Positions 831 through 64,000 of a stretch of DNA of 64,000 nt are shown piece after piece (within the stretch, counting starts at the first letter, position 1; the number at the start of each line of letters is the position of its first letter). The stretch is from NCBI GenBank assembly GCA_963829055.1, contig CAWHHI010000004.1:128001-192000 (forward strand). The letters are read 5' to 3'. Under the pieces are notes generated by a model. It saw only the letters and a list, made by a program, of their open reading frames with translations, was not told where the DNA came from and did not search any database. This stretch comes from an uncultured Gemmatimonadaceae bacterium. GTDB lineage: Bacteria; Gemmatimonadota; Gemmatimonadetes; Gemmatimonadales; Gemmatimonadaceae. The translations under genes were made by a program, and so were the position numbers.

Positions 831-837
831 GATGTCG

Positions 838-1312
838 TTAGGCCGCCCGTCCTCGCACCACCGCCGTGAACTCCGCGCTCACGGCCACACGATCAGACAC
901 CGTCGCGACACCCTTGAGCTTCGCGACACCGCGGCGGAAGCCACACCAGTTCCACCGACAACAGCAGCGTGTCGCCGGCCCGCGGGAGCGTGCGAAAGCG
1001 CACGCGCTGCGCCGACGCGAAGTAGCCGATCGCGCCGGAGATTCCGTCGAGCAGCCCAACAAGGACGCCGGCACTCGTCTGTGCGAGTGCTTCGACCACC
1101 AGCAGGCCAGGCATTTCCGGATTCGCCGCGGTCGACGCAACGCCGAACCACTCGCCCCCGTCACGCGCTTGAGGCCGAGTGCACGCCGGCCCGGCTCGAC
1201 GATGCGCAGTCGATCGACGAGCAGGAACGGAAACCGGTGCGCGAGCACGCCAAGCACGTCGATCGCGTCCGCCCACTCACGCTCGTCGACGCCGCTGTGG
1301 CTCGCTACTCAT
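838..1312 (-). CDS. fabZ: FabZ-like 3-hydroxyacyl-ACP dehydratase (frameshifted)
   Basis: HRFPFLLVDR, MPGLLVVEALAQ and RFR..P.AGD motifs spread over two frames; start approximate. Confidence 0.8.
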
Positions 1313-1318
1313 TGCTGC

Positions 1319-2038
1319 TCATGGGCCCGTTCCGCCTGTGAAATCGTCAGCTTGCACGTCCGCGAGATGCGCTACCCAACTCTCCGCGACGTCGGCGACT
1401 TCCGTCATCACCTGTGCGTCGTCCCGGCCAGAGCTCTTGAGCACGTGAAAGCTATGGTCCGCGCCCTCGATCCAGTGCATTTGCCAGGATGTGGCGGTCA
1501 CGCGCTACACCGCCGCATTCATGAGATCCGGCGTGCATAACGTGTCCCGGGTGCCGTTGACGCACAGCACCGGGACGCGAATCGACGGCAGGTGCGCGTC
1601 GCGAAGCTGATCGGGCCGGCCAGCGGGATGGAGCGGGTAGGCGAGAAGCAGCAGGCCTGAGCAGTCGAAGCCATCCGCCGCCAGCATGGACGCGGCGCGA
1701 CCGCCCATCGAGCGACCGCCAATGATCAGCGTCGTCGGGTTCAGCTCCTCGCGGACGCGCGCAACCACCGCGGACGTCGTCTCCTTGAGCTTCGGCATGG
1801 GATCGGGACGCCCGGAGCGCTTCTCCTTGTACAGGAAGTTGAAGCGGACGATGTCGAGTCCGCGGCTGCCCAGGGCTCGGGTCACGGCCAGCATGCCCTT
1901 GTCCGCCATGTTGCCGCCGGCGCCATGCGCGCACACGAACACCGTCGACCGATCGCCGCCGGGGGCGGGATCGAATGCAGCGCTCGTCGTCTCATCGCCG
2001 ACCTGCACGCGCCATTCGGCGTGGTTCCCAGACGTCAT
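1319..2038 (-). CDS. alpha/beta hydrolase (one frameshift near 1503)
   Basis: HGAGG oxyanion motif, GGRSMGG nucleophile elbow, GTRD acid, C-terminal GADHSF His. Confidence 0.85.
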
Positions 2039-2213
2039 CGGGCTCGATTCGTTAGGTGGAGGAAAGGGCTCGGAAGCGCCGCCCAGTCAAAGCTGCGCCG
2101 GAGGGCGCCCGCCTGCCAGTCGCGACGAGTCGTCGTCGGTTGCCTGCGACGCCGATGGACCGCAAGTTGGTGCCGCGTTCCGACGTCTCCAACTCGACCC
2201 TCGCCTCCCGCCA

Positions 2214-3085
2214 ATGCGCCTTCTTTCCGCCGTCCTCCTCGCAGTCCTCGCGCCTGTCGCCTCCGCGCAGCGCCCGCCGAAGATCTTCATCTCCGTCGAC
2301 ATGGAGGGCATTGGCGGCATTGGGACGTCCGCCATGACCAGTCCCACCGGCAAGGACTACGCGTTAGGGCGCAAGTTCATGACGGACGAGGTCAACGCGG
2401 TCATCGGAGCGATCCTGCAGCGCGGGCCGGCCGAGATTCTCGTGAACGACTCGCATGGCGACATGCAGAATCTGCTGAACGACCAGCTCGATCCCCGCGT
2501 CCTGTACAACCAGGGCGCGGTCAAGCCGCTCGGCATGGTCGAAGGCCTCGACTCCACGTACGCCGCCGTGATCTTCCTGGGCTATCACTCGCGCGCGGGA
2601 ACGCCGAACGGCTTCATCGCGCACACGGGGACGGGCGCGGTGAAGGGGCTGTGGCTGAACGACGTCGAGGTCGGGGAAGGGGAGCTCAACGCGGCGTACG
2701 CCGGCTCTGTCGGCGTGCCCGTGATCATGGCTGCGGGCGACTCGGCGTTCGTCGAGCAGTTCACGCGCACGGTGAAGGTCGAGGCGGTCACGACGAAGTA
2801 CGCCAACACGCCGCAATCAGCCAGGCTGATTCACCCGCAGGTCGTCCGCGAGCGCCTCGTCGCCGCGACGGGGCGTGCGTTGGGCGCTCGAGCGAACGCG
2901 AAGCCGTGGGTGATCGGGAAACCGGTGCGGTTCGACTCCGCCTGTCCGACAACACGGTGACCCAGATCCTGCAGGCGATTCCTGGCGTTAGGCAGGTGGA
3001 CGGCTTCACGGTGGAGTTCACCGCGCCCACCATGGGAGATGCCTACCGCCTCATCCGCCTCATGTACCGCTTCGTGACGGTCTGA
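2214..3085 (+). CDS. secreted M55 D-aminopeptidase, DppA-like (frameshift near 2930)
   Basis: signal peptide; ISVDMEG, VNDSHG, GYHSRAG and AHT motifs. Confidence 0.9.
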
Positions 3086-3110: not shown

Positions 3111-4125
3111 CTAGTTCGCCCGCGTCCACCTGCGTCCATCCCATTCCCACGTGTCGCTCACGACGCGTCCGTCATTGTTTCCACCGAAGAGAACCGTCCT
3201 GTCGCGGACAGGATCGTACGCCATGGCGTGTAGTGAACGCTTGCCTGGTGTGACGCCCGTCAACGCGATCCGCGACCAGCGACGGCCATCCCACTTCCAC
3301 ATGTCATCGAACTGCTGCGATCGTGTTTCGCCGCCGTAGAGCAGGACGACGCCGGCTCGACTGTCGAACGCCATCGCATGTCGATCGCGTGGAGACGGAC
3401 CCGCGTCGCTGAGTTTGCGCCACGACGCACCGTCCCAGCCCCACGTGTCACCGTAGTTAGGCTGCTCCCGACGTTCGCCTACCGGCGCTCCGACGCCGCC
3501 GAACATCACGCACCTGTCGGCGTGCAGCATCGAATACCATCGCCGCGACGCGTCCGAGCGGCCCGCTCGTTCCGACCTGACGCCACGCTGTCCCGTCCCA
3601 TTCCCAGGTGTCGGTCGCCCACGGGCCAGGCCGCCGAGGAAAGGGCCCGCCGCCGTACATCACGGTTCGGCCTCGTGCCGCATCGTAGGCCATCATGTGG
3701 TGATCGCGCGCTCCAGCGCTGGTATCGCGCATCTCCGTCCAACTCTGCCCGTCCCACTCCCATGTGTCGGGCGTGATCCGCTCGTCGCGACCGACGCGTC
3801 CGCTGAACGAAACGATGCGGTCGCGTCTCGAGTCGTACACGGCGGCGCTCGCGTATCGGCCCGTCGGTCCCGTGCTCGGGATGAGTGCCCAGGCGCGTCC
3901 ATCCCAAATCCAGATCTCGCTGTGTTCCGGACGCACCGCGCTGTACGTCCCGTCGAGCAGCACGAGTTTGCGCAACCGGTCGTGGAAGAGAAGCGCGGGT
4001 TGACTTCTCGGCCCGGGCTGCGCTGCGCCCTGCGCCTTCTCGGCCCGCTGGGCACTCGGCAACACAGCGTTAGGCGCCGAGCCGGCGAGGAAAACCAGCG
4101 CGGCGAGCAACGCGACGCGTGTCAT
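3111..4125 (-). CDS. secreted Kelch-repeat (beta-propeller) protein (frameshift near 3510)
   Basis: signal peptide; repeated YD..R.R.V.FGG...DTWEWDG..W units. Confidence 0.85.
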
Positions 4126-7764: not shown

Positions 7765-8532
7765 ACACTTCTGGTCGGCACGAGCGGGTTCGCGTTCAAG
7801 GAGTGGAAGGGCTCGTTCTACCCGAGCGACCTCAAGGACGACGCGATGCTCGGCTACTACTCGGGCCGGTATCCGACGGTCGAGATCAACAACACGTTCT
7901 ACCGCCTGCCGAAGGAGCACGTGCTGCTGGACTGGGCGTCGCAGGTGCCCGACCAGTTCACGTTCGCGATCAAGGCGAGCCAGCGCATCACGCATTACGC
8001 GCGCCTCAAGGCCGGCGCGGCGGACGCGCTGGGGTTTCTGTTGAAGAACACGGCGTCGTTAGGCGACCGCCTCGGCCCGATCCTGTTTCAGTTACCGCCG
8101 AATCTCCAGAAGGACATCGACCGGCTCCGCGCGTTCGTCGCGCTCTTGCCGGCGGATCGTCGGTTCACGATCGAGTTCCGGCACGAGAGCTGGTTCGACG
8201 AGGAGACGTTCGACGCGCTTCGCGCTCGCGACATCGCGTTATGCGTCTCCGAGTCGGCGGACGTCGTCTGTCCGAGAGTCGCCACTGCGTCCTGGGGTTA
8301 TCTGCGCCTCCATCGCCAGGACTACACGGATCCGATGCTCGCCGAGTGGCAGCAGTACGTCGCGGCGCAGCCGTGGAAGGACACGTACGTGTTCTTCAAA
8401 CACGATTACATCGATGGCGCGGGTCCGCTCGCGGTGGAGCGCTTCGTGGGAATGATCGGTTCGGCGCCGCCACTCGTTAGGGCTGTGGATGCCGTGCTTC
8501 CGAGCGCAGTGTCGGGTCCAGTGCGCGCCTAA
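7761..8532 (+). CDS. DUF72 family protein (indel near start)
   Basis: GTSGF..KEWKGSFYP, VEINNTFY, LFQLPP, EFRHESW, YLRLH; ATG overlaps the ku stop. Confidence 0.9.
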
Positions 8533-8553
8533 CGATTTTGTGCTTCTGGATCG

Positions 8554-18831: not shown

Positions 18832-21505
18832 TCAGTCGTATCGTAGCGCCTGCACTGGGTCGATGCGAAGTGCGCGCCGAGCCGGCAGCCAACTGGCGAT
18901 CAGCGCCGCGCCGAGCAGCACCACGACTACCAGCGCGAACGTCGCGGGATCCGTCGCCTGGACTTCGAAGAGAACGGCGGACATGAGACGGGTGAGCACG
19001 AACGCGCCCGCAATACCGGCCACGACGCCGGCCACGGCCAGCCCCATCCCCTGACCAACAACGAGTCGAAGTACCGACCGCGGGCTCGCGCCGAGTGCGA
19101 CGCGCACGCCAATCTCCTGTCGGCGTTGGCTCACCGCATACGCGAGCACGCCGTAAATGCCGAGTGCGCCCAGCGTGAGCCCCATGATCCCGAACAGCAG
19201 CAGGAGCGACGCGAGCAGTCGCGGACGCGCGACGGCGCCACCCACGATCGCCGACAGCGACTCGACGCTCGTGATGGTCTGATCGCGATCGACCGACCAG
19301 ATCGCCTCGCGCACCGCGTTCGCGTATCGCAGCGGATCGCCCGTGGTGCGGATCGCGAGACTCAGCCCCGCCCGCATGTTCTGCGGGTAATGAATGTAGG
19401 CCGTCGGCTCGGCCGGCTCGGACAGACTCTTCTGACGGAAATCTCCGACGACGCCGATGATCTGGATGGCCGCCGGGCCCATGCGAAGCACCTTGCCCAC
19501 CGGACTCTCGTTAGGGAAGTATTTCTTCGCGAACGCCTCGTTCACGATCCACACTGGCGGCGCATCCTCTCGGTCGGCGGCCGTGAAGCCCCGGCCGGCA
19601 CGCAGCGGGACTCCCATCGCGCGGAAGTAGTCGGCGCTCACGTGAAGCACGGGGAGGCGGATCTGGCGATCGCCCTCGGTGCTGCCGGCGCTTGCGGGCA
19701 CCGTTGGCGGCCGGAGCTCGCCGACGCCCCGCAGCGGGAAGTCCTTCGCCGCACCCACGGCCTCGACGCCGGGCACCGCCGCGATGCGATCGAGCAACGA
19801 CTGATAGTAATCCCGAATCCTCGCGTCCCCATACTTCTCGTACGTGCATGCCAAGTCTGACGGCGAGCACGTTGCGCGCGTTGAAGCCTGGATCGACGTC
19901 GAGCAGCCGCGCGAAGCTCTTGGTCGCGAGTCCCGCCCCGACGACCAGGATGACGGCGAGCGCCACCTCGGCCACCACGAGCGCGCTTCGCAGATGTTGG
20001 CCCGCGTTGCCGACTGACCCTCTCGAACCAGCGCGAAGGACGCCCTGAAGATTTCGCGACGTCGCTCGAATGGCAGGCAGTAGCCCGAACAGCAACCCGG
20101 CCAGTGTCGAGACGCCGAGGGTGTACAGCAGCACCGTCGCGTCGATGCGGATGGCCGCGGCGCGCGGCAGCTCGCCGGCCCCGATGGCGCCTAACGCTTT
20201 CACTCCTGCATATGCCAGGGCGAGGCCCATCGCCCCGCCTAGGAGCGCCAGCACGAGACTCTCAGTGACGAGTTGGCGCAGAATACGGCCGCGCCCCGCG
20301 CCAAGCGCGGAACGCACGGCAAGCTCGCGCTGGCGCGCCGTCGCGCGAGCGAGCAGCAGGCTGGCGATGTTCACGCACGTGATCAGCAGGACGAACGCGA
20401 CTGCGCCAAGGAGCAGCAGCAACGGCCGCCGGACTTCGCCGGTCAGCGCTTCGCGGACGGGTAGCATCGCGACGTCCGTCCACCCTCGCGCTTCCTGCTC
20501 CCGCTCGGCCGTCTGGCGCGAGATCTCCGCGAGCTCGTCGTGTGCCTGCGCGATAGTCGCCCCGGGCGCCAGCCGCCCGAACACGTCGAGAAAGCGGCTG
20601 GAGCGCTGCCGCCCTATCGCGTCCGGCCCCATGTTCGAGAGCGGCATCCAGAAATCGATGCGGTCGGCGGGGAATGTGAACTCCGGCGGCATGACGCCGA
20701 CGACGGTGTACGGAATGCCGTCGATGGTGAGCGCCCGCCCGATGATCGTGCGGTCACCACCGAATCGTCGTCGCCAGAGGCCGTCACTCAGCACCACGAA
20801 GTGATCGTTGCCGACCACCGCTTCCTCGGATCGAATCGTTCTGCCCAGCGCTGCCCTCGGGCGCAGCGTCTCGAAAAAGCCAGGCGTGAAGTACGCACCC
20901 TGAATGCGTTCGGGCGTTCCGGTGCCGGTGAGGTCCGCGCCGCTCCCGCCCGGTGCGTACCAGTACGCGGCCAATGACGCGAAGCGCTTGCTGGCGACTT
21001 TCCACTCCAGGAAGTCCGGCTCGGACACCTGCGACTTCGGGTCATTCTCCGCCTTGTTCACGTGCCAGATGCGGATCACGCGATCCGCCTCCGGGAAGGG
21101 CAGTGGGCTGAGAAGGACACCGCGCACGACGCTGAAGATGGCGGTGTTGGCCCCGATGCCTAACGCCAGCGTGAGCAGCGCGACGAGCGCGAAACCGGGC
21201 GCCGAGCGGAGCGTCCGCACGGCGTACACGAGGTCGTGCTTGAGCTCTTCGATCATGGTAGTGTGCCGTGTCTCCCGCTCGCGACGCACATCCTCGTCGC
21301 GGCAATAGCGTCTCGTGTATTCGAGGTTTCCGAACCGCTCCGCGGCTGCGCGGCGCGCGTCCTCGAGAGAGAGCCCTGACTCCGTCAGCTCCTCGATGCG
21401 ACGCGCGAGGTGGAACGCCAGCTCGGCGTCCACGTCGTTCGTCACCTGCCGCTTGGTGCGCCAGGCGAATCGGAACTCACGACGGGCTCGGGGTTGGCCG
21501 GACAT
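18832..21505 (-). CDS. ADOP-type duplicated ABC permease, MacB/FtsX-like (frameshift near 19850)
   Basis: ELAFHL, LTLALGIGANTAIFSVV, RQRELAVRSALGAGR, RRQEIGVRVALGA, PARRALRIDPVQALR. Confidence 0.9.
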
Positions 21506-35902: not shown

Positions 35903-36831
35903 GCCACTCGACCCACCCTGCTTCAGGGGACGAGGGCTTCGCGGTGACTACGCACGCGCTGTCCAAGCGATACGGTGGTGAGACGGCGCTCGATCGCGTC
36001 GAGCTCCGTGTTCCCGAGGGAGCGGTGTACGTGCTGATCGGACCTAACGGCGCCGGCAAGAGCACGACGTTCAAGATCCTCATGAACCTGGAGCGACCGG
36101 ATTCCGGCAGCGCCGAGGTGTTCGGGCTGGACACCGGGCGGCAGGGTCCCAAGGCACGAGCACAGGTGGGGTATGTGCCCGAGCGCCAGGACTCCGGCTA
36201 TCGCGCGATGACGTGCGGCCGCCTGTTCCAGCACGTGGCGGCGTACTACTCCAGCTGGGACCACGCGTATGCCGAACAGCTGACCCGCGCGCTCGATCTT
36301 CGGCTGCAGCGCAGAGTCGGTGGCCTGTCGAAGGGCGAGGCGAGGCGCCTCCAGCTCGTGATGGCGTTGGCGCATCGTCCCCCGCTCCTGTTGCTCGACG
36401 AGCCGACGGACGGCCTCGATCCGCTGGTCCGCAAACGGGTGCTCGCGCTACTGACTGAACACCTCGCCGACACGCCGACCACGGTTCTGATCTCTACGCA
36501 CCACGTCTATGAGATGGAGACGCTGGCGGACCACGTCGGAGTGCTCCGCGACGGGCGACTCGTCGCGCAGTTGGATCGCGATGAGCTCAAGCGCACGGTG
36601 CGGCGCTATCGGATCGAGGTGCCGGAGGGGTGGGAATCCCCGCCCGAGTTCCGCGTCGCCGCCGACGCGTCGCGCTCGCCGAATCGCCGCGAGCTGCAGT
36701 GGACCCTGGTCGGCGACGAGCGGTCGGTTGCCGAGAAGCTCGCCCTTACCGGCGCGCGGGTGCGCGAGGTGACGTCGCTCGGGCTCGAGGACGCGGCGCT
36801 CGCTTTTCTCGACGGAGAAGTGACAGGATGA
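35899..36831 (+). CDS. ABC transporter ATP-binding protein (YtrB-like)
   Basis: GPNGAGKST, LSKG, LLLDEPT, STH. Confidence 0.95.
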   Translation: MSHSTHPASGDEGFAVTTHALSKRYGGETALDRVELRVPEGAVYVLIGPNGAGKSTTFKILMNLERPDSGSAEVFGLDTGRQGPKARAQVGYVPERQDSGYRAMTCGRLFQHVAAYYSSWDHAYAEQLTRALDLRLQRRVGGLSKGEARRLQLVMALAHRPPLLLLDEPTDGLDPLVRKRVLALLTEHLADTPTTVLISTHHVYEMETLADHVGVLRDGRLVAQLDRDELKRTVRRYRIEVPEGWESPPEFRVAADASRSPNRRELQWTLVGDERSVAEKLALTGARVREVTSLGLEDAALAFLDGEVTG

Positions 36832-37758
36832 CGCAACCAGTGCTGCAGCCAGTGCTGCAACCAGTTCTGCATTCGACGCCCCGACCGCGCGACGTGCTGC
36901 GTGAGCAGGTCCGCGCGTTAGGCATCGCGATCAAGCTGCCGGCCGTCGTGGCCGTCGCGTTGGCAGCATTGGCGACGATATTCGTCGCCTCGAGGCTGTT
37001 CGACGCGGGCAAGCCGATCGACTTCGCGCCCGAGCTCTCGATGCTGCCTGGGATCGTGGGACTGCTGCTCCCCATCGGCGTCTGGAGAGGGGAGGATCGC
37101 TTCGGGGCAGGCCTTCTGTGGACGCTCCCGGTGGACCGCCGCCACCACGCGCTCACCAGGGTCTGCGCTGGGTGGGTCTGGTTGATGGCCGCCGTCGCGC
37201 TCTTCGTCCTGTGGCTGTTCGCGATCACGCTCATCTCGGGCGGGAACGTCACCGCCGAGTCGACGATTCGCGTCCTTCCATCGTCGGTCGTGCCGGAGCC
37301 GGGCACATTGGATGCAGCGTCGCTCGAGAGCGTGCGATGGACGCCGCGGCCGTTACTGTGGCTCGTTCCCTTCACGTCGGCGACGGGCGCCTACCTGCTC
37401 GCCAGCGCGTTCGCGTTAGGGACGCGCCATCCGATTCGCTGGCTCGTTGGAGTCGTGCTCGCCTTCTTCGCGTTCCTTGGCTTCGCCGAGGCGGCGCACT
37501 CGCGGGTGCTCCTCCAAGGGGCGAATCGTGTGCTGGTGGCACTGCATGGACGGGCCGTACGGGATCGATGCGCTCCTCACCGCGCGGACCGAGTCGCTCC
37601 ACACCGAAGCAACCCTCTCCACCGGGGAAAAGGTGGGCGTGTGGCGCGGGCTCCCGGATCTCGGCCAATGGGTGAAAGCCACACTCCTCTGGACCAGCGT
37701 GGGCCTGGCGGCACTGTGGGCCGCGGCCTCCCGACACAGGGAGCGCCGGCGGGGCTGA
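36828..37758 (+). CDS. putative ABC permease (frameshift near 37545)
   Basis: about six TM helices; LWTLPVDR; ATGA overlap with the ATPase. Confidence 0.75.
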
Positions 37759-41700: not shown

Positions 41701-42455
41701 CGCTCCTGTCCGAGAGCCTGGCGTGGTACTCGGCGATGTCGGTAGTGGAACGCACGTACGGCGCCAAGCATCTGGAGCGGTTCCTGGGAATACTGCGCGA
41801 AGCGTACCTAACGCCACAGTCGCGCGCTGGCGTTCCGCTGCTGCAGGCGTCCGACTGGTTCATGGCGTACCGCAAGGGGCCGTTCGCGATGTACGCGCTG
41901 CGCGAGTACGTCGGTGACGCACAGGTGACCACCGCCCTGCGGCGTCTCTTCGAGCAGCACCGCTCGGCGACACCTCCGCTGGCGACATCTCTCGATCTCT
42001 ATCGGGAGCTTCAGCTGGTCACGCCGGATTCGCTCCGGTATCTGCTCTCCGACCTGTTCGAATCGAATACCTACTGGCAGGTCGCGACGACGCAGGCATC
42101 GGCGGAGCAGGTCGAGGCAGGTAAGTGGCGAGTGACGCTCGACGTGAAGGCACGCAAGGTCGTCGTCGACACGATAGGCGTCGAGAAGGAAGTCTCGATG
42201 AACGACCTCGTCGAGATTGGTGTCTTCGGGCCGCCGAAGGACGGGGGGCCTGGCGAGCCGCTGTATCTGCGCATGCACCGCGTGCATTCCGGCGAGCAGC
42301 GCATCACCGTGACGGTGACGGGAAAGCCCGCGCGTGCCGGACTCGATCCGCGGAATCTGCTGATCGACGTCAACGGCGACGACAATCTTCAGGAGGTGAC
42401 TCTGTCAGCAATGAGATCAGCCGCGGACACCGGCGCGGCTCCGAATCGGCGTTAG
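38792..42455 (+). CDS. ABC-2 permease - M1 aminopeptidase fusion (multiple frameshifts)
   Basis: two TM blocks, then FYNTNVLNEY and the zinc motif HEVAHQWWG...ESLA, YRKG. Confidence 0.85.
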
Positions 42456-43578
42456 GCGATGCCGAGGAACGCCATCAACTCGGCGGCTGCGGCGCCGCCC
42501 GCGCGGTTCGCGCCGATGGTCGACGCGGACGGTCCGTAGCCGACGAGATGGATCCGTGGGTCTTTCGCGACCTGCGTCGCCAGCCTGCCGGTCATGACGA
42601 TGCCGCCGTCGGGCTCGCGGAGTAGCAGTGGCGCCAGATGATCGAGCGAGCTGCGGAAGCCGGTGCACCAGAGGATGACGTCGGCGTGCAGCGTGGTCCC
42701 GTCGTCCCAGCGGACGCCGTCCGTCGTGATCTCGCTGAACATCGGATGCCGGTTCAGAACCCCACGAGCACGCATGGCTTCGACCGCCGGTGTGAGCGGC
42801 AAGCCGGTGACCGAGACCACGGAGCTCGGCGGCAGTCCGCGTCGCACTCTGTCCTCCACGAGCGCGACCGCGGCGCGACCGGCAGCCTCATCGAACGGGC
42901 CGGTGCGGAATTCCGGCGGACGCCTCGTGGTCCACGTCGTCGTGGTGACGCGCGAGATCTCGTCGAGCAGCTGGATCGCCGAGATGCCGGCGCCGACGAT
43001 GATGACGTGCTTGCCCTACGAACTCCGCCGCCGACCGGTAGTCTCGCGTGTGCAGCTGGCGTCCCGCGAAGCGGTCCGCGCCCGGGTACTCCGGGATGTA
43101 CGGCGTCTCCCACGTACCCGTGGCGTTGATGATTCCGCGTGTCGAGACGGCGATGCGATCCGTCTCGACGTTCAGCCAGTCGCCGCGATCGCAGACGACG
43201 GTCACTTTCACCGGGCGATAGACGGGCAGGTCGAACGCCTTCTCGTACGCGGCGAAGTAGCGCGGCACCGCGACGGCGGCTTCGACTTCCGTCGCGGCGG
43301 TGTCGATCGCGTCGGAGAAGGGCATCCCGGGCAGGTCGTGAATGCGGTTGACGGTGCTCAGGGTCAGCGACGGCCAGCGGAACTGCCAGGCTCCGCCCGG
43401 CGTTAGGCGACTGGTCCAGCACGACGAAGCCGCGGTTCGGCACCAGGCCACGCCGTTTGAGATGGTAGGCCGAGGACAGGCCCGCCTGGCCGGCGCCGAT
43501 GACGACGATGTCGGTCTTGAGGCGCGCGCCGGACGCGGGCGCGTGCGTCGCGTCGGGCTCAGGCGGGCGTGTGGACAT
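42452..43578 (-). CDS. FAD/NAD(P)-dependent flavin monooxygenase-like oxidoreductase (frameshifted)
   Basis: IGAGQAGLS, GGAW, NATGTW, GRQLHT..Y, WCTGF. Confidence 0.85.
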
Positions 43579-43630
43579 TGGAGAACGGTAACCGAATGGC
43601 GCGATTGCGAACCCCGCGAAATGGTGTATT

Positions 43631-43654: not shown

Positions 43655-43686
43655 TTCGTACACCGTCGGCTTTTCGGGGACACCTA

Positions 43687-45692: not shown

Positions 45693-45744
45693 GTCCCCGC
45701 GGCCCCATCGCAGTAAGGGACGTTAGGCGCTCGTGTTGCGGAGC

Positions 45745-45785
45745 AAAGCCCGTCGCTGGCCAATGGCCAGCGACGGGCTTTTTGT
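45745..45785 (+). terminator. intrinsic terminator, possibly bidirectional
   Basis: AAAGCCCGTCGCTGGCCA / TGGCCAGCGACGGGCTTT stem with T-run, between convergent genes. Confidence 0.85.
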
Positions 45786-45860
45786 TGCGCCGAACGCGCA
45801 GCGGTCGTTCAACTGCGGTTCACGTAAGGACCTACACAGCACCATCGGAAGCGGTCAATG

Positions 45861-47402
45861 TCAGCGCTCCAGCTTGAACCCGGGGTCCAGCTTCGGCCGC
45901 TCCGGCGCGTTCGCCACGAACCACCCCGTCAGGTAGATCCACTGCGCCATGCGCGTGAGCTTCGGATAGTCGATGCGGTCGGGGTTGTCGCGCGGCGTGT
46001 GATAGTCGTCGTGCAGGTTGGTCGAGTACATCAGCGCCGGGACGTTCAGGCGCGCGTACGGCAGGTGATCGCTGCGGAAGTACCAACCCTCCGGGTGCGT
46101 CGGCCGATCCCAGATCGTGTCGAGCACGAACTTTCCCGTCAGCGCGTTCGCGCTGGAGCGCCATCGCCACGAGATCGCTCGAGTTGCGGTGCGGCGGCTG
46201 GCGCCGAGCAACGCGGCCGAGTCGGGGTTGTTGCGCCCGATCATGTCGCCGTTGAGCACGGCGACGATCTGCGCGAGCGGCACCACCGGATGCGCCGCGT
46301 GATAGCGCGAGCCGATCAGCCCGCGCTCCTCGGAGCCGTGATTGATGAAGAGCACCGAACGCTTGCCCGGCTGCTTGACGAACGCGCGGGCCGCGGCGAG
46401 GTCAGCGGCGGTCACCGACGCATTGTCGTCGGCGCCGGCGTGCACCGAGTCGCCCTCCAGCGTGGTGCGCACGCCGTTGGCATCCTGGTGCGAGCTGAAC
46501 ACCACGTACTCGTCGCGCAGCTTGGGATCGGTACCGCGCACGACGCCGATGACGTTCACCGACGGCGTCGTGAATCGCTCGAGTCGAATCGAGAGCTCGA
46601 CCTGCGGCTGCTGCGCGAGCGTCTCGCGCATCGCGGCGTGCACGAGGAAGCGTCGGCGTCGGGCCGGTGCCGAGCGCGGGCGGCGGCGCGATGCGCGGCG
46701 AGCCGTTCGCGGCGCGCGGTACGGCGTTGTCGACGTCGTACGTACCGCGGCTCCGCGTCGACGACACGACATCGAACGCGCTGTCCACCGCCGCGTTCGC
46801 GACCAGCAGAACGGCTGCCGCCCCGCGCCGCGCGAACCGCGCGGCGGTACCGTTCACGGCGGCGTCTGCGTAGCGGGAGGCAAAGGTGTAGCTGTTCGCG
46901 CGGATGCTGGACGGCACGGGCGCGAGCAGCGGGGTGGCAACGATGCGCCCGCGTATGTCGGCCGTGGTGTCCGACGCGTCCGGCACCCAGAGCACGGCTC
47001 CGGTTGCTTCCGCGGGCACGACGCCGAGCGGGATGAAGTCGCCGAACAGCGTCATCGCCTGCCCGCCGATGCTCGCTCGGCTCGCCGTGACCGAGACGCG
47101 CGTGCGCGTCATGTCGAACCACTGGAACCAGGTGCCGTCGTCGCCCATCGGCTTGAGCCCGATGTGGCGGTACTGGTCGGCTACCCATATCGGAGGCGCG
47201 CATCTCGTCGATCGTGCCTCCTTCGCGACCGCGCATTCCGGGCGACGGCCATCTCGCCGACGTCGCGTCGGAGGTCGGCCTCGCGAACAGCGGTGTACGC
47301 GGCGGGGAGCTCGGAGCGGCGCGCGCTGGACTGGGCGGCGAGCGGAGCGGCGAAGCAGAGAAGAGCGCCGGAGACGAGCCGAGTGGTGGGCGAGATGCGC
47401 AT
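45861..47402 (-). CDS. secreted M28 family peptidase (frameshifted)
   Basis: NVIG, SHQD, GADDNAS, SEERGLIGS, RSDH, DYHTP; signal peptide. Confidence 0.9.
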
Positions 47403-50898: not shown

Positions 50899-53601
50899 AT
50901 GCTGCGGAAACGACCGTTAGTTCACTCCCACGTGTTCCGCCTCGCTGCCGCGCTCACGGCAGTCTCGTGCCTAACGCTCACACCGGCACGTGCCCGCTCG
51001 CAGGAGGCGGTGCCGACCGGCTCCGTAGCCGGCAGGGTGACGAACGAGCAGGGCGCGCCGCTCGTCGGTGCCCAGGTCTTCATTGAAGGCACCAACCTCG
51101 GTGCGGTGACCCGGGACAGCGGCCAGTACGTCATCGCCCGTATCCCCGTCGGTTCTCGCATCCTGCGCGTGCGCCTCGTCGGCTTCCGCTCGCAGACGGC
51201 TTCCCTCACCATCGCGGCGGACCAGCGCGCAACGCAGAACTTCACGCTCGTGCAGGACCCGTTGAGCCTCGAGGCTGTGGTCGTCACCGGGTCGGTGGCG
51301 CCACGCGTGAATCAGGAGTCGAGTGTCGCCATCACCACGCTCACGCCGGAGCTGATCGAACAGGCAGCGCCGCGGAGCTCGACCGAGATGCTCCGCTTCG
51401 TGCCCGGCTTCACACGCGTGGAGAGCTCCGGCGGAGAGGTCAACCAGAACATCACCATGCGCGGGATCCTCGGCGTCGAGTACGTGATGTTCATGGAAGA
51501 CGGCATGCCGGTGTTCCCGACGATGCACACGTTCTTCATGAACGCGGACAACCTGTTCCGGCCCGACGACAACATTGAGCAGATGGAGGTCGTTCGCGGT
51601 GGGAGCTCGGCGCTGTTCGGCTCGAACACGCCTGGCGCGATCATCAACATCATCAACAAGACCGGCGGCCCCGAATTGCACGGCAGCCTGCGGGCGTCGG
51701 CGGGAACGGGTGGGCTCGCGCGCTACGAGTTCAACACCAACGGCCCGCTCGGCGACCAGTGGCGTTTCAACTTCGGCGGATTCTATCGGTACGACCGCGG
51801 GCATTCGCGACCCGGGGTTCCCCGGGAATCCGCGGCGGACAGGCCAAGGCCAACGTGACCCGCCTCCTCGACAACGGCTACTTCCGGCTGTCGGGCAAGG
51901 TCATCGACGATCGCAACCAGTTCATCCTCCCGCTTCCGTTCACGAACCCGGGGGACCCGACGTACGTGCCGGGCTTCGGGGACTACGGTGCGATGAGCAC
52001 GATCGAGGGGAACCACATCCGCGTGCCGACGCCTAACGGGCAGCTGGAGCTCCCGCTGGACGACGGACTCCGGACACAGGCCGGATGGATTACCGCCGAC
52101 GCCGCGTTCGACCTCGCCAGCGGCTGGCGCGTGCAGAACACCGGGCAGGCGATGCGGAATGCCCAGGCGTGGAACGCGATCGTCCCGAGCGACGTCATGC
52201 CGGCCGCGGACTTCGTGACCAGGCCGAAAAACCAGGGTGGTCTCGGATTCCCCGCCGGCACTCCGTTCACCTATACCTACACCAACCGCGACGATCCCAC
52301 GGGGAAATCCGTCGCCGTTCGGCACGCCGAACGGGCTCGTGGCTCCGGGTGGGGAGTGGCACATCGAGAAGCCGCTCGCGGCCTTCCAGGACCAGTTCCA
52401 GGTCCGGAAAGGGTTCGGCGGAGAACGCCATGTCGTTAGGTCTGTACTTCGCCAACTACTCGCAGACCAACCGCTGGTACTTCACCGACATTCTCACGGA
52501 CGTGCAGGACAACCCGGAGTTCCTCGACCTGACGGTGTCGAGCGGCGGCCGCTCGATCCCGATCACGAAGAACGGATTCCGGCACTTCATATCGAATTAC
52601 GTGAACGGAACGGGGCAGGCCACCATCGTCTCCGGATCGCTCGGCGGCGCGTTCCGCCCGACACAGCGGTTGCGGGTCGACGCTGGGGTACGGTGGGAGT
52701 ACAACGACTTCGTGCAGAGCTCCGAGAACTCGTCGATCGTCGACCTCGACGGGGATTCGACGACGACGTACGACGCCGAGCCGTGGGGGAACTCGACCTT
52801 CCGGCACTTCAGCCGCAGCCTGGACGACTGGGCGGGATCGCTGGGGCTCAACTTCCAGTTGAACGACCGGGTTGCCTTGTATGCGTCAGGCGGGCGGGCG
52901 TACAAGATGCCGGCGCTGGATGAGTTCCTGAACGCGACGTCGCCGGAGCAGGTCTCGCTGTTCGACTCTCGCGAAGTGCGGAACGTCGAAGGCGGAGTGA
53001 AGTTCGCCGCGCCGAGCTTCGGCTTCACGGTCAACGGGTTCTACACCCAGCTCAAGAACATCGTGGGGCAGGGCGCGGTGACCGATACGGCGACGGGGCG
53101 GACGACGTGGATCGTGCTGACCAGCCCCGAGAACAACTCGTACGGCGCCGAGCTCGAGATCGCCGGCTCGCCCTTCCGCTCGCTGCGATTGGACGCGAAC
53201 GGGACGTGGCTCAAGGCCGAGTTGGGATCGGGTGCCGGTGCGGATGTCGGCAGCTGGATCAACGGTGTTCCGAAGGTGATCTCGAACCTCGCCGCGACAT
53301 ACTCCGATCGCGAAATTCCGCGTTGAGCGGCGACTGGCACTTCGTGGGGAGCCGGTTCTCGGACGTGAAGGCGGGGAACAAGCTGCCGCAGTACAGCGTC
53401 TACAACTTCGGCGCAGGATACTTGTTCCCGAAGTCGCGGCTGACCCTCACGGCCGATCTGCAGAACGCCTTCCAGTCGAAGGGGCTCGAGGAGGGGAACC
53501 CGCGGCTGGCGTTGCTCGCCGGTGGTCGGACGAGCAATCTGTTCCTCGCACGCCCACTGCTCCCGCGTCGTGTCATGGTGTCGCTGCGTCACGACTACTA
53601 G
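50899..53601 (+). CDS. TonB-dependent receptor with N-terminal carboxypeptidase-regulatory-like domain (frameshifted)
   Basis: signal peptide; VVVTG; plug motif MEVVRGGSSALFGSNTPGAIIN; barrel strands ending RHDY. Confidence 0.9.
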
Positions 53602-58451: not shown

Positions 58452-58460
58452 CGGACCACG

Positions 58461-59543
58461 ATGGCAGGCGTTAGGCTCGCGCACGTCGACAAGCGGTACC
58501 CCAACGGCTTCGTCGCCGCGCGGGACCTCAGCCTGGAGATCGCCGACGGCGAGCTCCTCGTCCTCGTGGGTCCGTCGGGGAGCGGGAAGTCGACCGTGCT
58601 CCGTATGATCGCCGGACTGGAGGCGGTGACGGGCGGAACGATCCACATTGGCGACCAGGATGTCACCCGGCTCCCCCCACAGCGGCGCGACATTGCCATG
58701 GTCTTCCAGAGCTACGCGCTCTACCCGCACCTGACGGTCCGCGACAATCTCAGTTTCGGGTTGCGGATCCGGAAGCTGGCGGACGACGTGATCGTGCGGC
58801 GTGTGTCGACGGTGGCCGACTCCCTCGGTCTCACGCCGCTGCTCGACCGCAAGCCGGCGCAGCTCTCCGGCGGCCAGCGTCAGCGGGTCGCGCTCGGCCG
58901 CGCGATCGTCCGTGAGCCGCGCGCCTTTCTCCTCGACGAGCCGCTATCGAACCTCGACGCACGGCTGCGACTGGAAACGCGCGCCGAGCTGTCGCGGCTC
59001 CACCGCCGGCTCGGCGCGACGATGATCTACGTGACGCACGACCAGGTAGAGGCGATGACACTTGGCGAGCGTGTCGCGGTGCTGAAGGATGGTGCTCTTC
59101 AGCAGGTCGCGCCGCCGATGGAGCTGTACAAGCGGCCGGCGAATCAGTTCGTCGCCGGATTCATCGGAAGCCCGGGGATGAACTTCATCGAGGGGACGTT
59201 GCGACGCGACGGCGACGAGTGCGTATTCGCGTCGCCATCGTTGACGCTGCCGGTCCCCTGCGCGCCCACGGATGGAGACCGCGTGGTTCTCGGCGTGCGC
59301 CCCGAGCACATCACGCTCGGCGCCCCCGTGGCCGATGGCGGGGCACTGGCTCGTGGCACGGTGGCGCTCATCGAGCCGATCGGCGGGGAGCAGATCGTCT
59401 ACGTGACGCTCGCCGACGGCGCGAGACTCGTCGCGACAGCGCCGCCGGATGCGTCAGTCGCGGTCGACGAGAGCGTATCGCTCCGCATCGCGCCCGATCG
59501 GGTGCAGCTGTTCAGCGCGCGGGACGGGAGGCGGCTGGGGTGA
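58461..59543 (+). CDS. sugar ABC transporter ATP-binding protein (MalK/SugC-like)
   Basis: GPSGSGKST, VFQSYALYPH, LSGGQRQR, DEPLSNLDA, TOBE domain. Confidence 0.95.
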   Translation: MAGVRLAHVDKRYPNGFVAARDLSLEIADGELLVLVGPSGSGKSTVLRMIAGLEAVTGGTIHIGDQDVTRLPPQRRDIAMVFQSYALYPHLTVRDNLSFGLRIRKLADDVIVRRVSTVADSLGLTPLLDRKPAQLSGGQRQRVALGRAIVREPRAFLLDEPLSNLDARLRLETRAELSRLHRRLGATMIYVTHDQVEAMTLGERVAVLKDGALQQVAPPMELYKRPANQFVAGFIGSPGMNFIEGTLRRDGDECVFASPSLTLPVPCAPTDGDRVVLGVRPEHITLGAPVADGGALARGTVALIEPIGGEQIVYVTLADGARLVATAPPDASVAVDESVSLRIAPDRVQLFSARDGRRLG

Positions 59544-60862: not shown

Positions 60863-61891
60863 ATGACGCCACGAGAAACGACCGTCGCCGCATTGGTGGT
60901 CGCCGACATGCTCCAATACCTGGCCCGGCGTGGCGTGAGCACCGACGCTGCGCTCAGCGTGGCCGGGATCGATTCGGCGTTCCCCGCGTCACCCGACGAG
61001 CGAGTGCCCGGGTCGCGAGTGGAGCGCCTGTGGAGCTTCGGCGTCGAGCAGACAGGCGACCCTCTGCTCGGCTTGCACATGGCCGAGACCTACAATCCGG
61101 GCGCGCTGGATATCCTCGGCTACGTCATCCTGAGCTGCCGGACGATTGGAGAAGTGCTCGAGAAGTTCGCTCGCTACGCGCGTCTGCTGAACGACGGCAT
61201 GCGTGTGGAGCTCGTCCGCGAAGGCAAGACAGCCTTTTGCCGATGCACGTACGTCGAAGGCGTCGACAACTATCTGCTCCGCGATCCGCAGCACGCGATA
61301 GGCGCGACCTGGGGCGGACTGGCGCGCGAGATGCGCCGACTCGCCCGGACGCCGTTAGGCGCCAAGGCAGTGTGGTTCCGACATGCCGCTCCGAGCCGCG
61401 CGCATGTCGCCGAGTACACGCGGGTGATGGGCGCACCAGTGAGGTTCGGGGCACCCGAAGACCGGTTCATCTTTCCGAGCGAGCACCTCGATCAACCGCT
61501 GCCGTCGGCGAATCCAGTGTTGCTCGAGGTGTTCGAGCGACATGCGCGAGCGGCGCTGCCGGCAGTCGGACCGGAGCAGTCCCGTGCGGACGAGGTGGCG
61601 CGCGTGTTGGCGCAGAAGCTCAAAGGGAGCGCGCCCGCACTCCACGAAGTCGCCCGCGAGTTGTCGATGAGCACCCGGAACCTGCAGCGCACGCTGCGCG
61701 ACGCGGGCACGTCGTATCAATCGCTGCTCGACGCGACTCGACGCGACCTGGCCATCCGCCACCTCGCGAATCCCGCGACGTCAACCGGCCAGGTCGGCTT
61801 CCTGCTCGGCTTCTCGGAACCGAGCGCGTTCCACCGCGCGTTCCGTCGGTGGACCGGCAAGCCACCGAGCGCCTTTCGACCTGCGCAGTAG
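60863..61891 (+). CDS. AraC-family transcriptional regulator
   Basis: N-terminal ligand domain (TGDPLLGL); MSTRNLQRTL, LGFSEPSAFHRAFRRWTG. Confidence 0.95.
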   Translation: MTPRETTVAALVVADMLQYLARRGVSTDAALSVAGIDSAFPASPDERVPGSRVERLWSFGVEQTGDPLLGLHMAETYNPGALDILGYVILSCRTIGEVLEKFARYARLLNDGMRVELVREGKTAFCRCTYVEGVDNYLLRDPQHAIGATWGGLAREMRRLARTPLGAKAVWFRHAAPSRAHVAEYTRVMGAPVRFGAPEDRFIFPSEHLDQPLPSANPVLLEVFERHARAALPAVGPEQSRADEVARVLAQKLKGSAPALHEVARELSMSTRNLQRTLRDAGTSYQSLLDATRRDLAIRHLANPATSTGQVGFLLGFSEPSAFHRAFRRWTGKPPSAFRPAQ

Positions 61892-61932
61892 CAAGGAGTA
61901 GCAATACGTTAGGCAGGATTGCCTGGCTCGAT

Positions 61933-62625
61933 CTAGTCAGGTGCCGGAGCGTGGTCGGGTGGGTCGAGCCGAAGCAACGGCACCGACTCATGCGATTGCT
62001 GCGCGAGCAGGTCGCTTACGAGCGATGCCCCACGCGGCGACACCCGCCGGGCGGCAACGAGACGCCGCGTGAACCACTTCCCGCGCTTCGTATCCAGCGC
62101 GTCGTAGCGTACGCTCCCGCCGCTGCTCGTGGCGTGAATGATCCGGCGACGCCCGGCGTAGATCGCTACGTGGCTGATGCGCCGTCCGGGCTCGGCGAAC
62201 ATGACCAGGTCGCCTGGTCGGAGCGCCGACCAGACAGCACGAAGCCGCTGGCCTGACGACGCTTGCTCGCGCGACGTGCGCGGGAGGCGCGTGCCGTGCC
62301 TGGCGAACACGTACTGCACGAATCCCGAGCAATCGAAGCCCGTCTTCGGCGACGTTCCGCCCCATCGATACGGCACACCGAGATACCGCTCCGCCGTCGG
62401 AAGCACGCGCGCGGCAGACCGCGCCGGAACTTTGGACGCCACGCGTTCCGCGGCGCGGATAGCCGTCAGGACCTTACGCGCGTCCCCGGTCACGTCGACA
62501 TGGACCGGGCCCGCCGCCAGCTGCGCGCGCGCGTCGGTGGCGCAGAGCACGACTGCGCACAGCGCGATGGCGGCCACCGGCTGACGCGGTGCCACATTGC
62601 GAATACCCACCAACTGCCACTGCAT
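61933..62625 (-). CDS. NlpC/P60 cell-wall peptidase
   Basis: GVPYRWGG, GFDCSGF, PGDLV, SHVAIY, IIHA. Confidence 0.95.
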   Translation of the reverse strand: MQWQLVGIRNVAPRQPVAAIALCAVVLCATDARAQLAAGPVHVDVTGDARKVLTAIRAAERVASKVPARSAARVLPTAERYLGVPYRWGGTSPKTGFDCSGFVQYVFARHGTRLPRTSREQASSGQRLRAVWSALRPGDLVMFAEPGRRISHVAIYAGRRRIIHATSSGGSVRYDALDTKRGKWFTRRLVAARRVSPRGASLVSDLLAQQSHESVPLLRLDPPDHAPAPD

Positions 62626-62928
62626 GAAACCTCACTGGAGAAACAGCTTGCGGAGGAACCACGCGGGCAAGATCGCGGCCGACGGCGGGTCGGCACGTAA
62701 CCGATTGAGAAAAGGCGTGTTCGGTGGTTATGAGCGGCGCACGGCCACGGCGAGTTGTACACTCGAGAGGACTCCAGGGCGTCCTCGGGGGAAGGCAGCC
62801 GCTACCATACGTGTGGCCCTTTCACCTAACGCGGAACCGATCGCAGGCGTGATGTTGCCACGCCCCCTTGAAAATCAGCGGCTCCGGTCGTTTGATGGAC
62901 GCGTGATCGACTTCTCATGGAGAATGGA

Positions 62929-64000
62929 ATGAGCACGCGTCGTCTGATGAAACACGCCGCGCTCGTCGCGGGAGTTCTTGCAATGTCACGAGTCCAGGCA
63001 CAATCGCCGGCGACCAAGCGGGCGCGTGAGGTCGTCGCCGTCATCAACGCGGCCACTCCGGCGTCGATTCGCGCGTTCGTCGACTCCGCGTTCGACGATC
63101 AGATGCGCGGCATGCCGATGCGTGCCCACATCGACTTCTTCATGAACCAGCGCGAGCAGTCCGGTGGCCTCGAGTGGGTCGACGTGCAGGACGAGAAGCC
63201 CGGTGAAACCACCGCGCTGCTCAAACGGAAGCTCACCGGCGATCTGATGGCCGTTGTGGTTCGCACGAATCCCGCCGCGCCGTATCGCATCGGGGGCATC
63301 GGGCAGCGCCCACCACGTCCCAAGGTCGCGCAGGCCGAACAGCGTATCACCACGGACGCCGAGCTCACCACCGCGCTCGGCGACTACGTCAACAGGCTCG
63401 CGAGAGCCGATCTGTTCTCGGGCACCGTTTTCCTCGCGAAGGACGGCAGGCGCCTCTACGGCATGGCGTTCGGCGAGGCGAACAAGGACTTCGGCGTGCC
63501 TAACGCGCTCGACACGAAGTTCAACCTCGGCTCGATGAACAAGATGTTCACGGCCGTCACGATCGGGCAGCTGGTCGAGCAGGGAAAGCTGTCGTACGAT
63601 GACCCGCTCTCGAAGTTCCTTCCCGACTTTCCGAGCGCTGACGCCGCGAAGAAGATCCGCATCAAGCACCTGCTCACGCACACGTCAGGGCTCGGCAGCT
63701 ACTTCAACGACGAGTTCGATCGTTCGTCGCGCGCGAGGTACCGCACGGTCGACGAGATGCTGACGCTCGCCAAGGGCGAGACGCTCGCGTTCGAGCCTGG
63801 TACGCGCTGGTCGTACAGCAACACCGGCATGCTCGTCCTCGGCAAGGTGATCGAGGTCGTCACGAAGCAAGACTACTTCGACTACGTCCGCGAGCACCTG
63901 TACAAACCCGCGGGGATGATGAGAACCGATGCCTATCAGCTCGACGAGGTGAACAAGAACCTCGCGGTTGGCTACCAGCCCGAGTTCGCCGAGGACGGAA
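62929..64000 (+). CDS. secreted serine hydrolase, beta-lactamase family (runs off the window end)
   Basis: manual translation MSTRRLMKHAALVAG...; SMNK, LLTHTSG, YSN motifs; absent from the ORF track because no stop is reached. Confidence 0.9.
   Translation, partial: MSTRRLMKHAALVAGVLAMSRVQAQSPATKRAREVVAVINAATPASIRAFVDSAFDDQMRGMPMRAHIDFFMNQREQSGGLEWVDVQDEKPGETTALLKRKLTGDLMAVVVRTNPAAPYRIGGIGQRPPRPKVAQAEQRITTDAELTTALGDYVNRLARADLFSGTVFLAKDGRRLYGMAFGEANKDFGVPNALDTKFNLGSMNKMFTAVTIGQLVEQGKLSYDDPLSKFLPDFPSADAAKKIRIKHLLTHTSGLGSYFNDEFDRSSRARYRTVDEMLTLAKGETLAFEPGTRWSYSNTGMLVLGKVIEVVTKQDYFDYVREHLYKPAGMMRTDAYQLDEVNKNLAVGYQPEFAEDG

Follow-up and report, generated by a model that had tools for sequence, protein, structure and literature searches.

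Genes and word copies in the window

The window, meaning the whole stretch of 64,000 nucleotides analysed here, spans positions 128,001 to 192,000 of contig CAWHHI010000004.1 (GenBank assembly GCA_963829055.1, an uncultured member of the family Gemmatimonadaceae). Between positions 836 and 63505 both of its strands are interspersed with the heptamer CGTTAGG (CCTAACG in the other orientation), which an initial annotation had noticed as a highly iterated repeat written through coding sequence. An exact count recovered the 66 copies reported there, their distribution over the plus (36) and minus (30) strands and the positions listed for them, compared with 3.00 +/- 1.69 copies (maximum 8) in 100 dinucleotide-preserving shuffles. 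The field comprises 47 copies of CGTTAGGC, 10 of CGTTAGGT and 9 of CGTTAGGG. It is part of a genome-wide octamer whose pattern tentatively suggests a drive acting on DNA segments, comparable to that behind DNA uptake sequences.

Inside genes, the copy at 2361..2369 (plus strand) is read as xCG-TTA-GGN, Ala-Leu-Gly with the rare leucine codon TTA, in a peptidase M55 gene (2214-2960); that at 36043..36049 (minus strand) as xxG-CCT-AAC-Gxx, Pro-Asn, in the Walker A loop GPNGAGKS of an ABC ATPase gene (35899-36831); that at 50970..50976 (minus strand) as xGC-CTA-ACG, Cys-Leu-Thr, in a TonB-dependent receptor gene (50899-51858); and that at 58469..58476 (plus strand) as xxC-GTT-AGG-Cxx, Val-Arg, at the start of a MalK-type ABC ATPase gene (58461-59543). 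The codon examples offered earlier hold good, namely Ala-Leu-Gly at 2361, Val-Arg at 58470, Leu-Thr at 50971, and Pro-Asn written CCT-AAC in the Walker A loop at 36043 in contrast to CCG-AAC (at about 37962) in the paralogous loop (about 37959-37967).

Other copies supply stop codons. The octamer at 8527..8534 (minus strand) ends the plus-strand gene 7846-8532 as GCC-TAA-CG, and the octamer at 39257-39264 ends the gene 38621-39262 in the same layout; that at 42450..42457 (plus strand) ends the plus-strand gene 41208-42455 as CGT-TAG-GC. At 19509..19515 (plus strand) the TTA of the copy is the reverse complement of the TAA stop of the minus-strand gene 19511-21505, and gene ends compared with site coordinates give the same layout at 18247, 21513, 24544 and 29876.

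Genome-wide abundance and identity of the word

The assembly comprises 7.78 Mb in 20 contigs with a G+C content of 66-67%, a completeness of 85.9% and no mapped origin. CGTTAGG occurs in it 6391 times, at 0.64-1.09 copies per kb on every contig. The base 3' of the heptamer is C in 78% of these copies and flanks further out are nearly uninformative, so that the full word is the octamer CGTTAGGC; the repeat of the initial annotation was real, with an actual core of eight bases, one more than the heptamer it had described. The octamer occurs 5004 times (2547 forward, 2457 reverse) against Markov expectations of 131, 102 and 257 for orders 1, 2 and 3, and is the top 8-mer of the genome by observed/expected ratio. 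TTAG had been called otherwise scarce, and 6732 of its 8933 occurrences on both strands indeed lie inside CGTTAG.

Some neighbours of the octamer are enriched as well (TGTTAGGC, 435 copies; CGTTAGGT, 827; CGTTAGGG, 428; CGTTATGC, 583) and inner G-to-A variants are rare (13-24 copies each, genome-wide); from this pattern GTTAGG is strict, and the two end positions are looser.

Further words are over-represented in the whole genome (G000 among the genomes compared below), namely TCGGAATGA (767 copies), TGTCATCC (660), AGTCGAGGAA (408), AATCGGGAAT (240) and GGGACTGGGG/AGTCCCCAGT (212-246); some of them may be pieces of longer dispersed repeats.

Coding sequence and stop codons

Genes were taken from a home-made codon-score caller that was hampered by frameshifts in the assembly, and tests used the 5236 confident genes (5.24 Mb). 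These genes hold 3017 octamers compared with 127 +/- 12 in 10 within-gene shuffles of synonymous codons, a generous null that retains the rare codons contributed by the word itself. The excess thus survives the codon-preserving control that the initial annotation had proposed, and codon usage and peptide bias are ruled out as its cause.

All four frames that avoid TAG and TAA are in use, as had been seen in the window. The frame xCG-TTA-GGC accounts for 1234 copies and 23.3% of [SPTA]LG tripeptides (1234/5305); xxG-CCT-AAC-G, in which one rare codon is needed, for 831 copies and 58.5% of compatible xPN[VADEG] peptides (831/1420); xGC-CTA-ACG for 551 copies and 20.2% of compatible [CRSG]LT peptides (551/2726); and C-GTT-AGG-C for 401 copies and 11.2% of compatible xVR[LPHQR] peptides (401/3577). 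In each of the four peptide contexts no encoding is more frequent than the word, which outnumbers even the codon-preferred one, and 47% of the TTA codons of the genome lie inside the octamer. Saturation is ordered by cost, the cheapest sites being preferred.

The two frames barred by TAG or TAA, whose use the initial annotation had missed, serve as stop codons. The word ends 297 of 5228 confident genes; GCC-TAA-CG accounts for 171 of 683 TAA stops (25%) and CGT-TAG-GC for 126 of 1355 TAG stops, each being the commonest 8-base context of its stop codon among these genes.

Strand, spacing and regional density

Polarity was assessed as local strand skew and its relation to GC skew along the 20 contigs. 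In 143 bins of 50 kb the strand skew of the word has a standard deviation of 0.183 compared with 0.177 for binomial sampling, and it is not correlated with GC skew (r = 0.10, p = 0.22); replication polarity is thus rejected. Together with the nearly equal forward and reverse totals, this bears out for the genome the earlier description of the word as non-palindromic and not strand-polarised. A runs test on orientation gave z = -3.0, a slight clustering of like orientation.

Spacing is far from random. Gaps of less than 100 bp make up 1.4% of the gaps between copies compared with 6.3% for a random process. For a site at which the word can be encoded silently, occupancy is 3.5% with another copy less than 50 bp away and climbs with the distance to that copy: 11.5% (100-200 bp), 19% (200-300 bp), 26% (300-500 bp) and 30-32% (0.5-1.5 kb). 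When occupancy is permuted among compatible sites, gaps below 500 bp give z values of -9.5 to -14.9. There is mutual exclusion between copies over about 300-500 bp, independently of how they are oriented: pairs that are direct, convergent or divergent stand near 2:1:1 from about 50 bp upwards, and below 50 bp 21 of 30 pairs are direct. Inverted pairs of terminator type are rare genome-wide.

Two convergent close pairs (an R'-like box followed by an R''-like box, in the terms of integron recombination sites used below) occur in the window at 8475-8534 and 38050-38148, separated by 53 and 92 bp; attC sites have the opposite order, and close pairs are rare in the genome.

The orientation-independent exclusion over a few hundred bases disfavours directional readers and site-autonomous processes alike. 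A polar chromosome signal for a translocating machine, either Chi-like (RecBCD or AddAB) or KOPS/SRS-like (FtsK), would suit a non-palindromic octamer, and the frequency of the word is within the range of known Chi sites. Chi and KOPS, however, are read directionally and are skewed by replichore; with no local strand polarity, no link to GC skew, and opposite orientations that exclude each other as strongly as like ones, which is unexpected for direction-specific use, such a signal is scarcely credible here.

The density of the word is 0.58 per kb in confident coding sequence compared with about 0.89 per kb in short gaps between confident genes, and by type of gap it is approximately 1.33 per kb in convergent, 0.91 in tandem and 0.47 in divergent gaps, the intergenic figures being approximate on account of the gene caller.

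Assembly quality

Among 80 related loci that encode relatives of MgtE, 10 carry the octamer at 0.3-0.76 copies per kb, and 9 of these 10 lie on contigs whose names mark short-read assemblies made with MEGAHIT or SPAdes. Contigs from the runs of four further studies (rhizosphere, soil and freshwater sediment; 2017-2025) align to positions 36001-46000 of the window with 98-99% identity in their best pieces, and show no change at the sites 36043 and 36916 among the 40 of 557 differences that were listed. A long-read or assembly artefact, which the initial annotation had raised as a possible refutation, is excluded by the presence of the word in contigs of short-read metagenome-assembled genomes (MAGs), in relatives and in independent metagenome runs. 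In the population of soil run X10, a G>C change at position 37421 (one contig, depth 10) turns the CGTTAGGG copy at 37414..37421 (plus strand) into a perfect octamer.

Many genes of the window are split into adjacent fragments, at 3457-6449, 8892-11859, 50899-53326 and 54806-55922; they encode LigD, a UvrD-type helicase with an exonuclease domain, a TonB-dependent receptor and a GH65 hydrolase. The contigs from independent runs are without single bases of the window at 43399 (where all four runs agree), 43013-43014 and 45405-45406, and because of these differences the assembly seems to carry one-base insertion errors, consistent with its completeness of 85.9%.

Probable foreign DNA

Three long stretches outside the window are free of the word: 49.6 kb on contig 6 (5440-55037), 46.8 kb on contig 11 (0-46789) and the last 31.5 kb of contig 6 (591808-623330). 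The first two contain housekeeping genes, including trp and aro genes and those for FtsK, FolD, PGM and GlnA, and for 9 of 10 genes tested from them a second copy with 32-60% amino-acid identity is present elsewhere in the assembly; GreA, the sole gene tested from the third stretch, has no second copy in the assembly. The copy-free stretches are likely to be DNA of another organism, chimeric contig ends or very recent imports, and on that reading the word separates resident from foreign DNA. Motif-poor stretches of 10-16 kb have a lower G+C content.

Conservation and phylogenetic range

In genomes of the same genus, at 70-83% nucleotide identity, the exact octamer is kept in 17 of 37 site-by-genome pairs, compared with 13.9% for all 8-mers in the same alignments; sites that are not kept often differ at two or more bases, as in CGCTCGGC. 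Conservation between genera was examined in two conserved neighbouring genes of ten saturated genomes from seven genera, where, of 34 motif positions, 33 are private, each confined to a single genus; 8 positions are common to species of genus g56. The two central residues at motif positions match in only 23 of 260 comparisons with unsaturated genomes, so that the sites either occupy protein positions that vary or have altered those positions.

Saturation extends to all 7 genomes of the genus, which have 2500-5100 copies each. The family was sampled with 301 genomes of 77 genera, the reversed word serving as control, and tallies of genomes include the unpublished G013, G051, G052, G150, G264, G282, G309, G351, G378 and G447, on none of which any specific claim depends. 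Word density forms a continuum that begins near zero and ends at 1.3 per kb. By unscripted reading of the table, about one third of the genera lie at least 2-fold above the control, and the rest lie below it; saturated genera range from 0.03 to 1.3 per kb. Outside the family, among 175 genomes of eleven families of the phylum, 172 are unsaturated, and only genus g110 is mildly enriched, with 3 of its 5 genomes above the control. Saturation is confined to part of the family Gemmatimonadaceae, with almost nothing outside it, which gives the lineage-wide signal of the initial annotation its phylogenetic range. No published description of the word had been known then, and literature searches agree among the matches listed.

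Saturated and unsaturated lineages interleave on the tree of MgtE and on that of a conserved methyltransferase-like protein, with 6 and 5 parsimony changes, respectively; well-supported branches make at least 2 of these changes unavoidable. Genus g56 itself contains both states, in two sister subclades whose relationship has full support.

In some relatives that lack CGTTAGGC, different dispersed words are found: a AGAGAACTGCA-like word in L072 (1-21383; 18 copies in 21 kb), an AG-rich AGAAGAGAGA-like word in L078 (1-21365; 15 copies in 21 kb), GACATCTGAC in G018 (L093-L096; 18-24 copies in 80 kb) and CGTCAGGC, a one-base neighbour of CGTTAGGC, in G030 (L089-L092; 19 copies in 30 kb). In the related loci L017, L050, L074 and L045, words of 7-10 bases are repeated in short tandem arrays confined to a few hundred bases, L017 having 18-19 copies within 250 bp.

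Spacing and conservation together invite the explanation that a chromosomal protein that binds double-stranded DNA, nucleoid-organising or of the integrase/Xer type, recognises the word and needs a copy every few hundred bases to 1 kb; selection for chromosome function, not uptake, would then keep the copies, as proposed for HIP1 of cyanobacteria. Such a protein would account for exclusion within 300-500 bp irrespective of orientation and the plateau of occupancy beyond, for the conservation of sites within the genus and for the depletion of divergent promoter gaps; HIP1 is likewise conserved and non-randomly spaced and is read as a chromosome-structure signal (PMC5861425, in excerpt). The word also is a double-stranded R-box of the kind bound by tyrosine recombinases. 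The roughly 40-fold range of density among saturated genomes and the existence of whole sister groups without the word would, however, be odd for an essential structure, positions are not common between genera, and no candidate protein was found; we consider this explanation unlikely, though the likeliest of the rivals.

Integron core site

The core of the octamer, GTTAGGC, fits the integron core site; we take GTTAGGC to be the core that was originally published as the integron consensus. The recombination-site option of the initial annotation had missed this identity with the attC/attI core as used in the order, for which the 7-bp form GTTRRRY is given (PMC2674596).

The genome itself encodes an integron integrase on contig 20 (208041-208958, minus strand), with a score of 265.7 bits where the curated cut-off is 265. 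It is adjoined by a series of GCCTAACG sites, all on one strand, two of which fold as attC-like hairpins, GCCTAACG...CGTTAGGT and GCCTAACG...CGTTAGCC. The chromosomal integron occupies positions 197000-209000 of contig 20, with attC-like sites 3' of intI, and the orientation of intI would be inverted relative to the cassette array; no attI was located.

Hairpins were sought as complementary boxes R'' (NNNNAAC) and R' (GTTNNNN), 45-140 nt apart, with a DNA folding energy of -18 kcal/mol or lower. Those of the type GCCTAACG...CGTTAGGC also occur beside the integrases of unsaturated genomes. In G049 (5.9 Mb), whose genome has 26 copies, a single cassette array accounts for at least 11 of them, and same-strand clusters with a spacing of 500-700 bp in unsaturated genomes of a neighbouring family are cassette arrays. 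The 225 hairpins from 13 unsaturated genomes yielded 450 R-boxes; their most frequent 8-mers are CGTTAGGC (87) and TGTTAGGC (59), followed by CGTTAGAC, TGTTAGAC and CGTTAGGT with 13 each. The word is thus the commonest attC R-box of Gemmatimonadales integrons, even in unsaturated genomes; since these use the same core, the attC core is not a by-product of saturation, and the dispersed word therefore shares its sequence with an existing recombination site. CGTTGGGC, an attC core of another type tested for genome-wide spread in its hosts against its reversed control, reaches 1.6-1.7 times the control in two genomes with that core and about 0.5 in three others, a weak and composition-sensitive contrast.

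The dispersed copies are not attC sites, being solitary and without hairpin context. More than 99% of them stand alone, with no conserved hairpin in their flanks, R''-then-R' adjacent pairs at 50-200 bp number at most about 42 genome-wide, and none of the window copies is in attC hairpin arrangement (site pairs there read R' then R'').

These data bear directly on the proposal that the dispersed R-boxes serve, or arose through, the integron integrase, as attG-type landing sites for cassettes or as integrase-binding sites. It is attractive in that the word fits GTTRRRY (PMC2674596) and is the commonest attC R-box 8-mer of the order, that an integrase above the curated cut-off with adjoining attC-like hairpins is present in the genome, and that the enriched variants TGTTAGGC, CGTTAGGT and CGTTATGC are also found as attC boxes; in Escherichia coli, integrases put cassettes at many genomic GWT sites (10.1101/2022.09.11.507474, in part). 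Against it stand the solitary state of the copies just described, an integrase that is equally frequent in unsaturated genomes, and the same attC core in genomes in which no spread has occurred; insertion at intragenic sites would moreover be harmful, and no known integrase reaction converts single bases towards its own site. The proposal is decidedly improbable.

Methyltransferases

The C5 methyltransferase family PF00145 is absent from the genome and is present in 5 of 26 saturated and 12 of 27 unsaturated genomes, Vsr not having been searched for; the N4/N6 methyltransferase family PF01555 is likewise absent from the genome and occurs in 10 of 26 saturated and 18 of 27 unsaturated genomes, and PF02384 has no match in the genome. 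PF00145, PF01555, PF02384 and PF02086 were rejected as determinants, being absent or without association with the trait.

A gene for an MmeI/Eco57I-like N6-adenine methyltransferase (about 1070 aa) is present in the genome and at first was found in 5 of 5 saturated genomes. It then proved to occur in 47 of 48 further genomes of both states (52 of 53 overall), its tree mixes the two states, and no 100-column window of the protein has raised identity between saturated genomes, so that it too was rejected, with no signal in a specificity domain. On contig 8 of the genome (about 70001-82000, L163) the gene is followed by one for an SNF2-family helicase (about 780 aa), and the same synteny is found in the fetched loci of 19 relatives (L144-L162); vertical conservation of the pair across the family is unusual for a restriction-type enzyme.

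A site-autonomous bias of mutation or repair, whether as methyltransferase-linked repair of the very-short-patch kind, which has been discussed for HIP1, or as a replication error specific to the context, would agree with an excess at silent positions and in non-coding DNA alike, with the C-to-T relation of TGTTAGGC (435) and CGTTAGGT (827) to the word, and with the Eco57I-like gene. Such a bias would not, however, produce mutual avoidance over 300-500 bp; three of the families above are absent, PF00145 is no commoner in saturated genomes, and the Eco57I-like gene is present whatever the state and is without a specificity-domain signal. Of the suggestion that the word is a lineage-wide DNA signal, the genome-wide and lineage-limited part stands; its modification- or repair-driven variant is highly unlikely.

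Interpretation

The reading that we favour, tentatively and at somewhat under an even chance, is a segment-level drive like that of DNA uptake sequences, with a reader in uptake or recombination. A force would act on the DNA itself, not on proteins or RNAs, and write the word into resident DNA; its unit would be a few hundred bases of DNA, with one copy every 0.3-0.5 kb or so sufficing on either strand and in either orientation. An uptake or recombination step may prefer those fragments from relatives that carry the word, whereby word-gaining alleles would spread by molecular drive until the costs to codons and proteins halt them, and a fragment that already has one copy would gain little from a second; the same reasoning has been put forward for uptake sequences. 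The placing of the reader in the uptake or recombination pathway is itself an inference. A slow drive opposed by selection fits the saturation ordered by cost, the excess in gaps 3' of genes, the absence from foreign DNA, the private positions and the continuous densities. The hardware of uptake is encoded, ComEC and PilQ-type secretins both being present in the genome.

The reader probably shares its specificity with integron recombination sites, because the word is the commonest attC R-box even in unsaturated genomes. It is possible that the reader favours cassette-carrying DNA, which would explain the shared specificity. The fuller version, in which an acquisition system is tuned to the integron cassette core and saturation is a by-product of molecular drive, is improbable as it stands.

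Several observations weigh against a segment-level drive of this kind. Natural competence is undocumented for the phylum among the literature matches listed; no paper among them pairs Gemmatimonad* with an uptake sequence, and searches with the word as a string gave primers and unrelated matches among those listed. Interference over 0.3-0.5 kb is shorter than expected for the fragments of uptake or recombination, and a spaced DNA-binding protein fits it equally. The repeated switches between saturated and unsaturated states need repeated loss, or repeated gain of the same word. A PilQ-type secretin is found in 52 of 52 genomes, saturated or not, so that this hardware has no discriminating power. 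ComP_DUS (PF16732) has no match at E <= 0.1 in the 85.9%-complete genome. The receptor for uptake in Pasteurellaceae is, to our knowledge, unknown, and ComP as a criterion thus defines DNA uptake sequences of the Neisseria type only. A 171-aa pilin-like open reading frame (ORF) on contig 16 gave matches only to its N-terminal helix, in saturated and unsaturated genomes alike, and was rejected as a receptor. No gene was found, among the families tested, whose presence tracks saturation; the integron integrase itself occurs in 19 of 26 saturated and 20 of 27 unsaturated genomes and was dismissed as a determinant for lack of association. Of the partners whose co-occurrence the initial annotation had envisaged, PilQ-type secretins are present in both states, ComP has no match in the genome, and none of the methyltransferase families tested tracks the word. 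Finally, the identity with the integron core is not predicted by a plain uptake model, and the correspondence between attC boxes and dispersed variants is loose (rho = 0.49, p = 0.055, n = 16), GTTAGAC and GTTAGCC being common in attC and rare genome-wide.

Comparison with known systems

The DNA uptake sequences (DUS) of Neisseriaceae and the uptake signal sequences (USS) of Pasteurellaceae, and HIP1, had been named as parallels at the outset, and the anatomy of the word resembles both. Like DUS and USS, it is short and non-palindromic, occurs at about 1 copy per kb equally on both strands and without polarity, uses several frames in genes, is denser outside genes and more evenly spaced than chance, and is lineage-restricted, with other words in related lineages and a scarcity in foreign DNA. 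Unlike them, it belongs to a different phylum in which no ComP-type receptor was found in the genome, it saturates or is absent from sister groups as one and the same word, and it is the integron core. Close inverted pairs are common at terminators in DUS and are rare here. Even spacing, a lack of orientation bias and frequent location in ORFs are described for DUS/USS in passages of PMC1939737, and 34% of DUS are placed in coding sequences in passages of PMC11893778.

HIP1 (GCGATCGC) is similarly a hyper-abundant octamer imposed on coding sequence, conserved and non-randomly spaced; excerpts of PMC5861425 and PMC13756078 give it up to more than one copy per gene and a function long unknown and now proposed to be an aid to transformation. 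It differs in being a palindrome recognised by two orphan methyltransferases, whereas the present word is asymmetric and no methyltransferase family was found to track it.

GTTAGGC fits the R' core GTTRRRY and inverse core RYYYAAC of integrons, and is the commonest R-box, including beside the genome's own integrase. attC sites, in contrast, are hairpins of 60-140 nt in cassette arrays beside intI, and the 5004 copies are mostly solitary 8-mers in genes; attG sites in E. coli need only GWT (10.1101/2022.09.11.507474, in part). Chi and KOPS are, like the word, over-represented non-palindromic octamers across the chromosome; they are directional and replichore-skewed (PMC3384302, in excerpt), which the word is not. 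The NTS/Ssn repeats of Neisseria resemble it as a repeated genomic sequence tied to natural transformation, and differ as hairpins of about 30 bp, 2% of them in genes and clustered near particular genes (both after passages of PMC11893778), from an 8-mer that is mostly intragenic.

Significance

In practical terms, the word flags foreign or chimeric DNA in MAGs of the family, where it exposed three suspect segments in the assembly studied here, and it marks integron cassette arrays in unsaturated relatives. The sister groups with and without saturation are natural contrasts in which the reader may be found by comparative genomics.

Sequence-specific recognition of self DNA is firm only in Neisseriaceae and Pasteurellaceae and is now suspected for the HIP1 of cyanobacteria. 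If soil bacteria that are abundant and for the most part uncultured were to supply a third or fourth case, such tags would be shown to be a general outcome of bacterial sex. Should the acquisition system be tuned to the cassette core, with cells that preferentially import or keep gene-cassette DNA, a new phylum would be home to a third independent uptake-sequence system, and natural transformation and integrons would for the first time be functionally coupled through the sequence recognised. The identity with the integron core was unexpected and suggests that cassette exchange and the chromosome-wide drive share a recognition step, which, if true, would change the understanding of how gene cassettes flow in soil.

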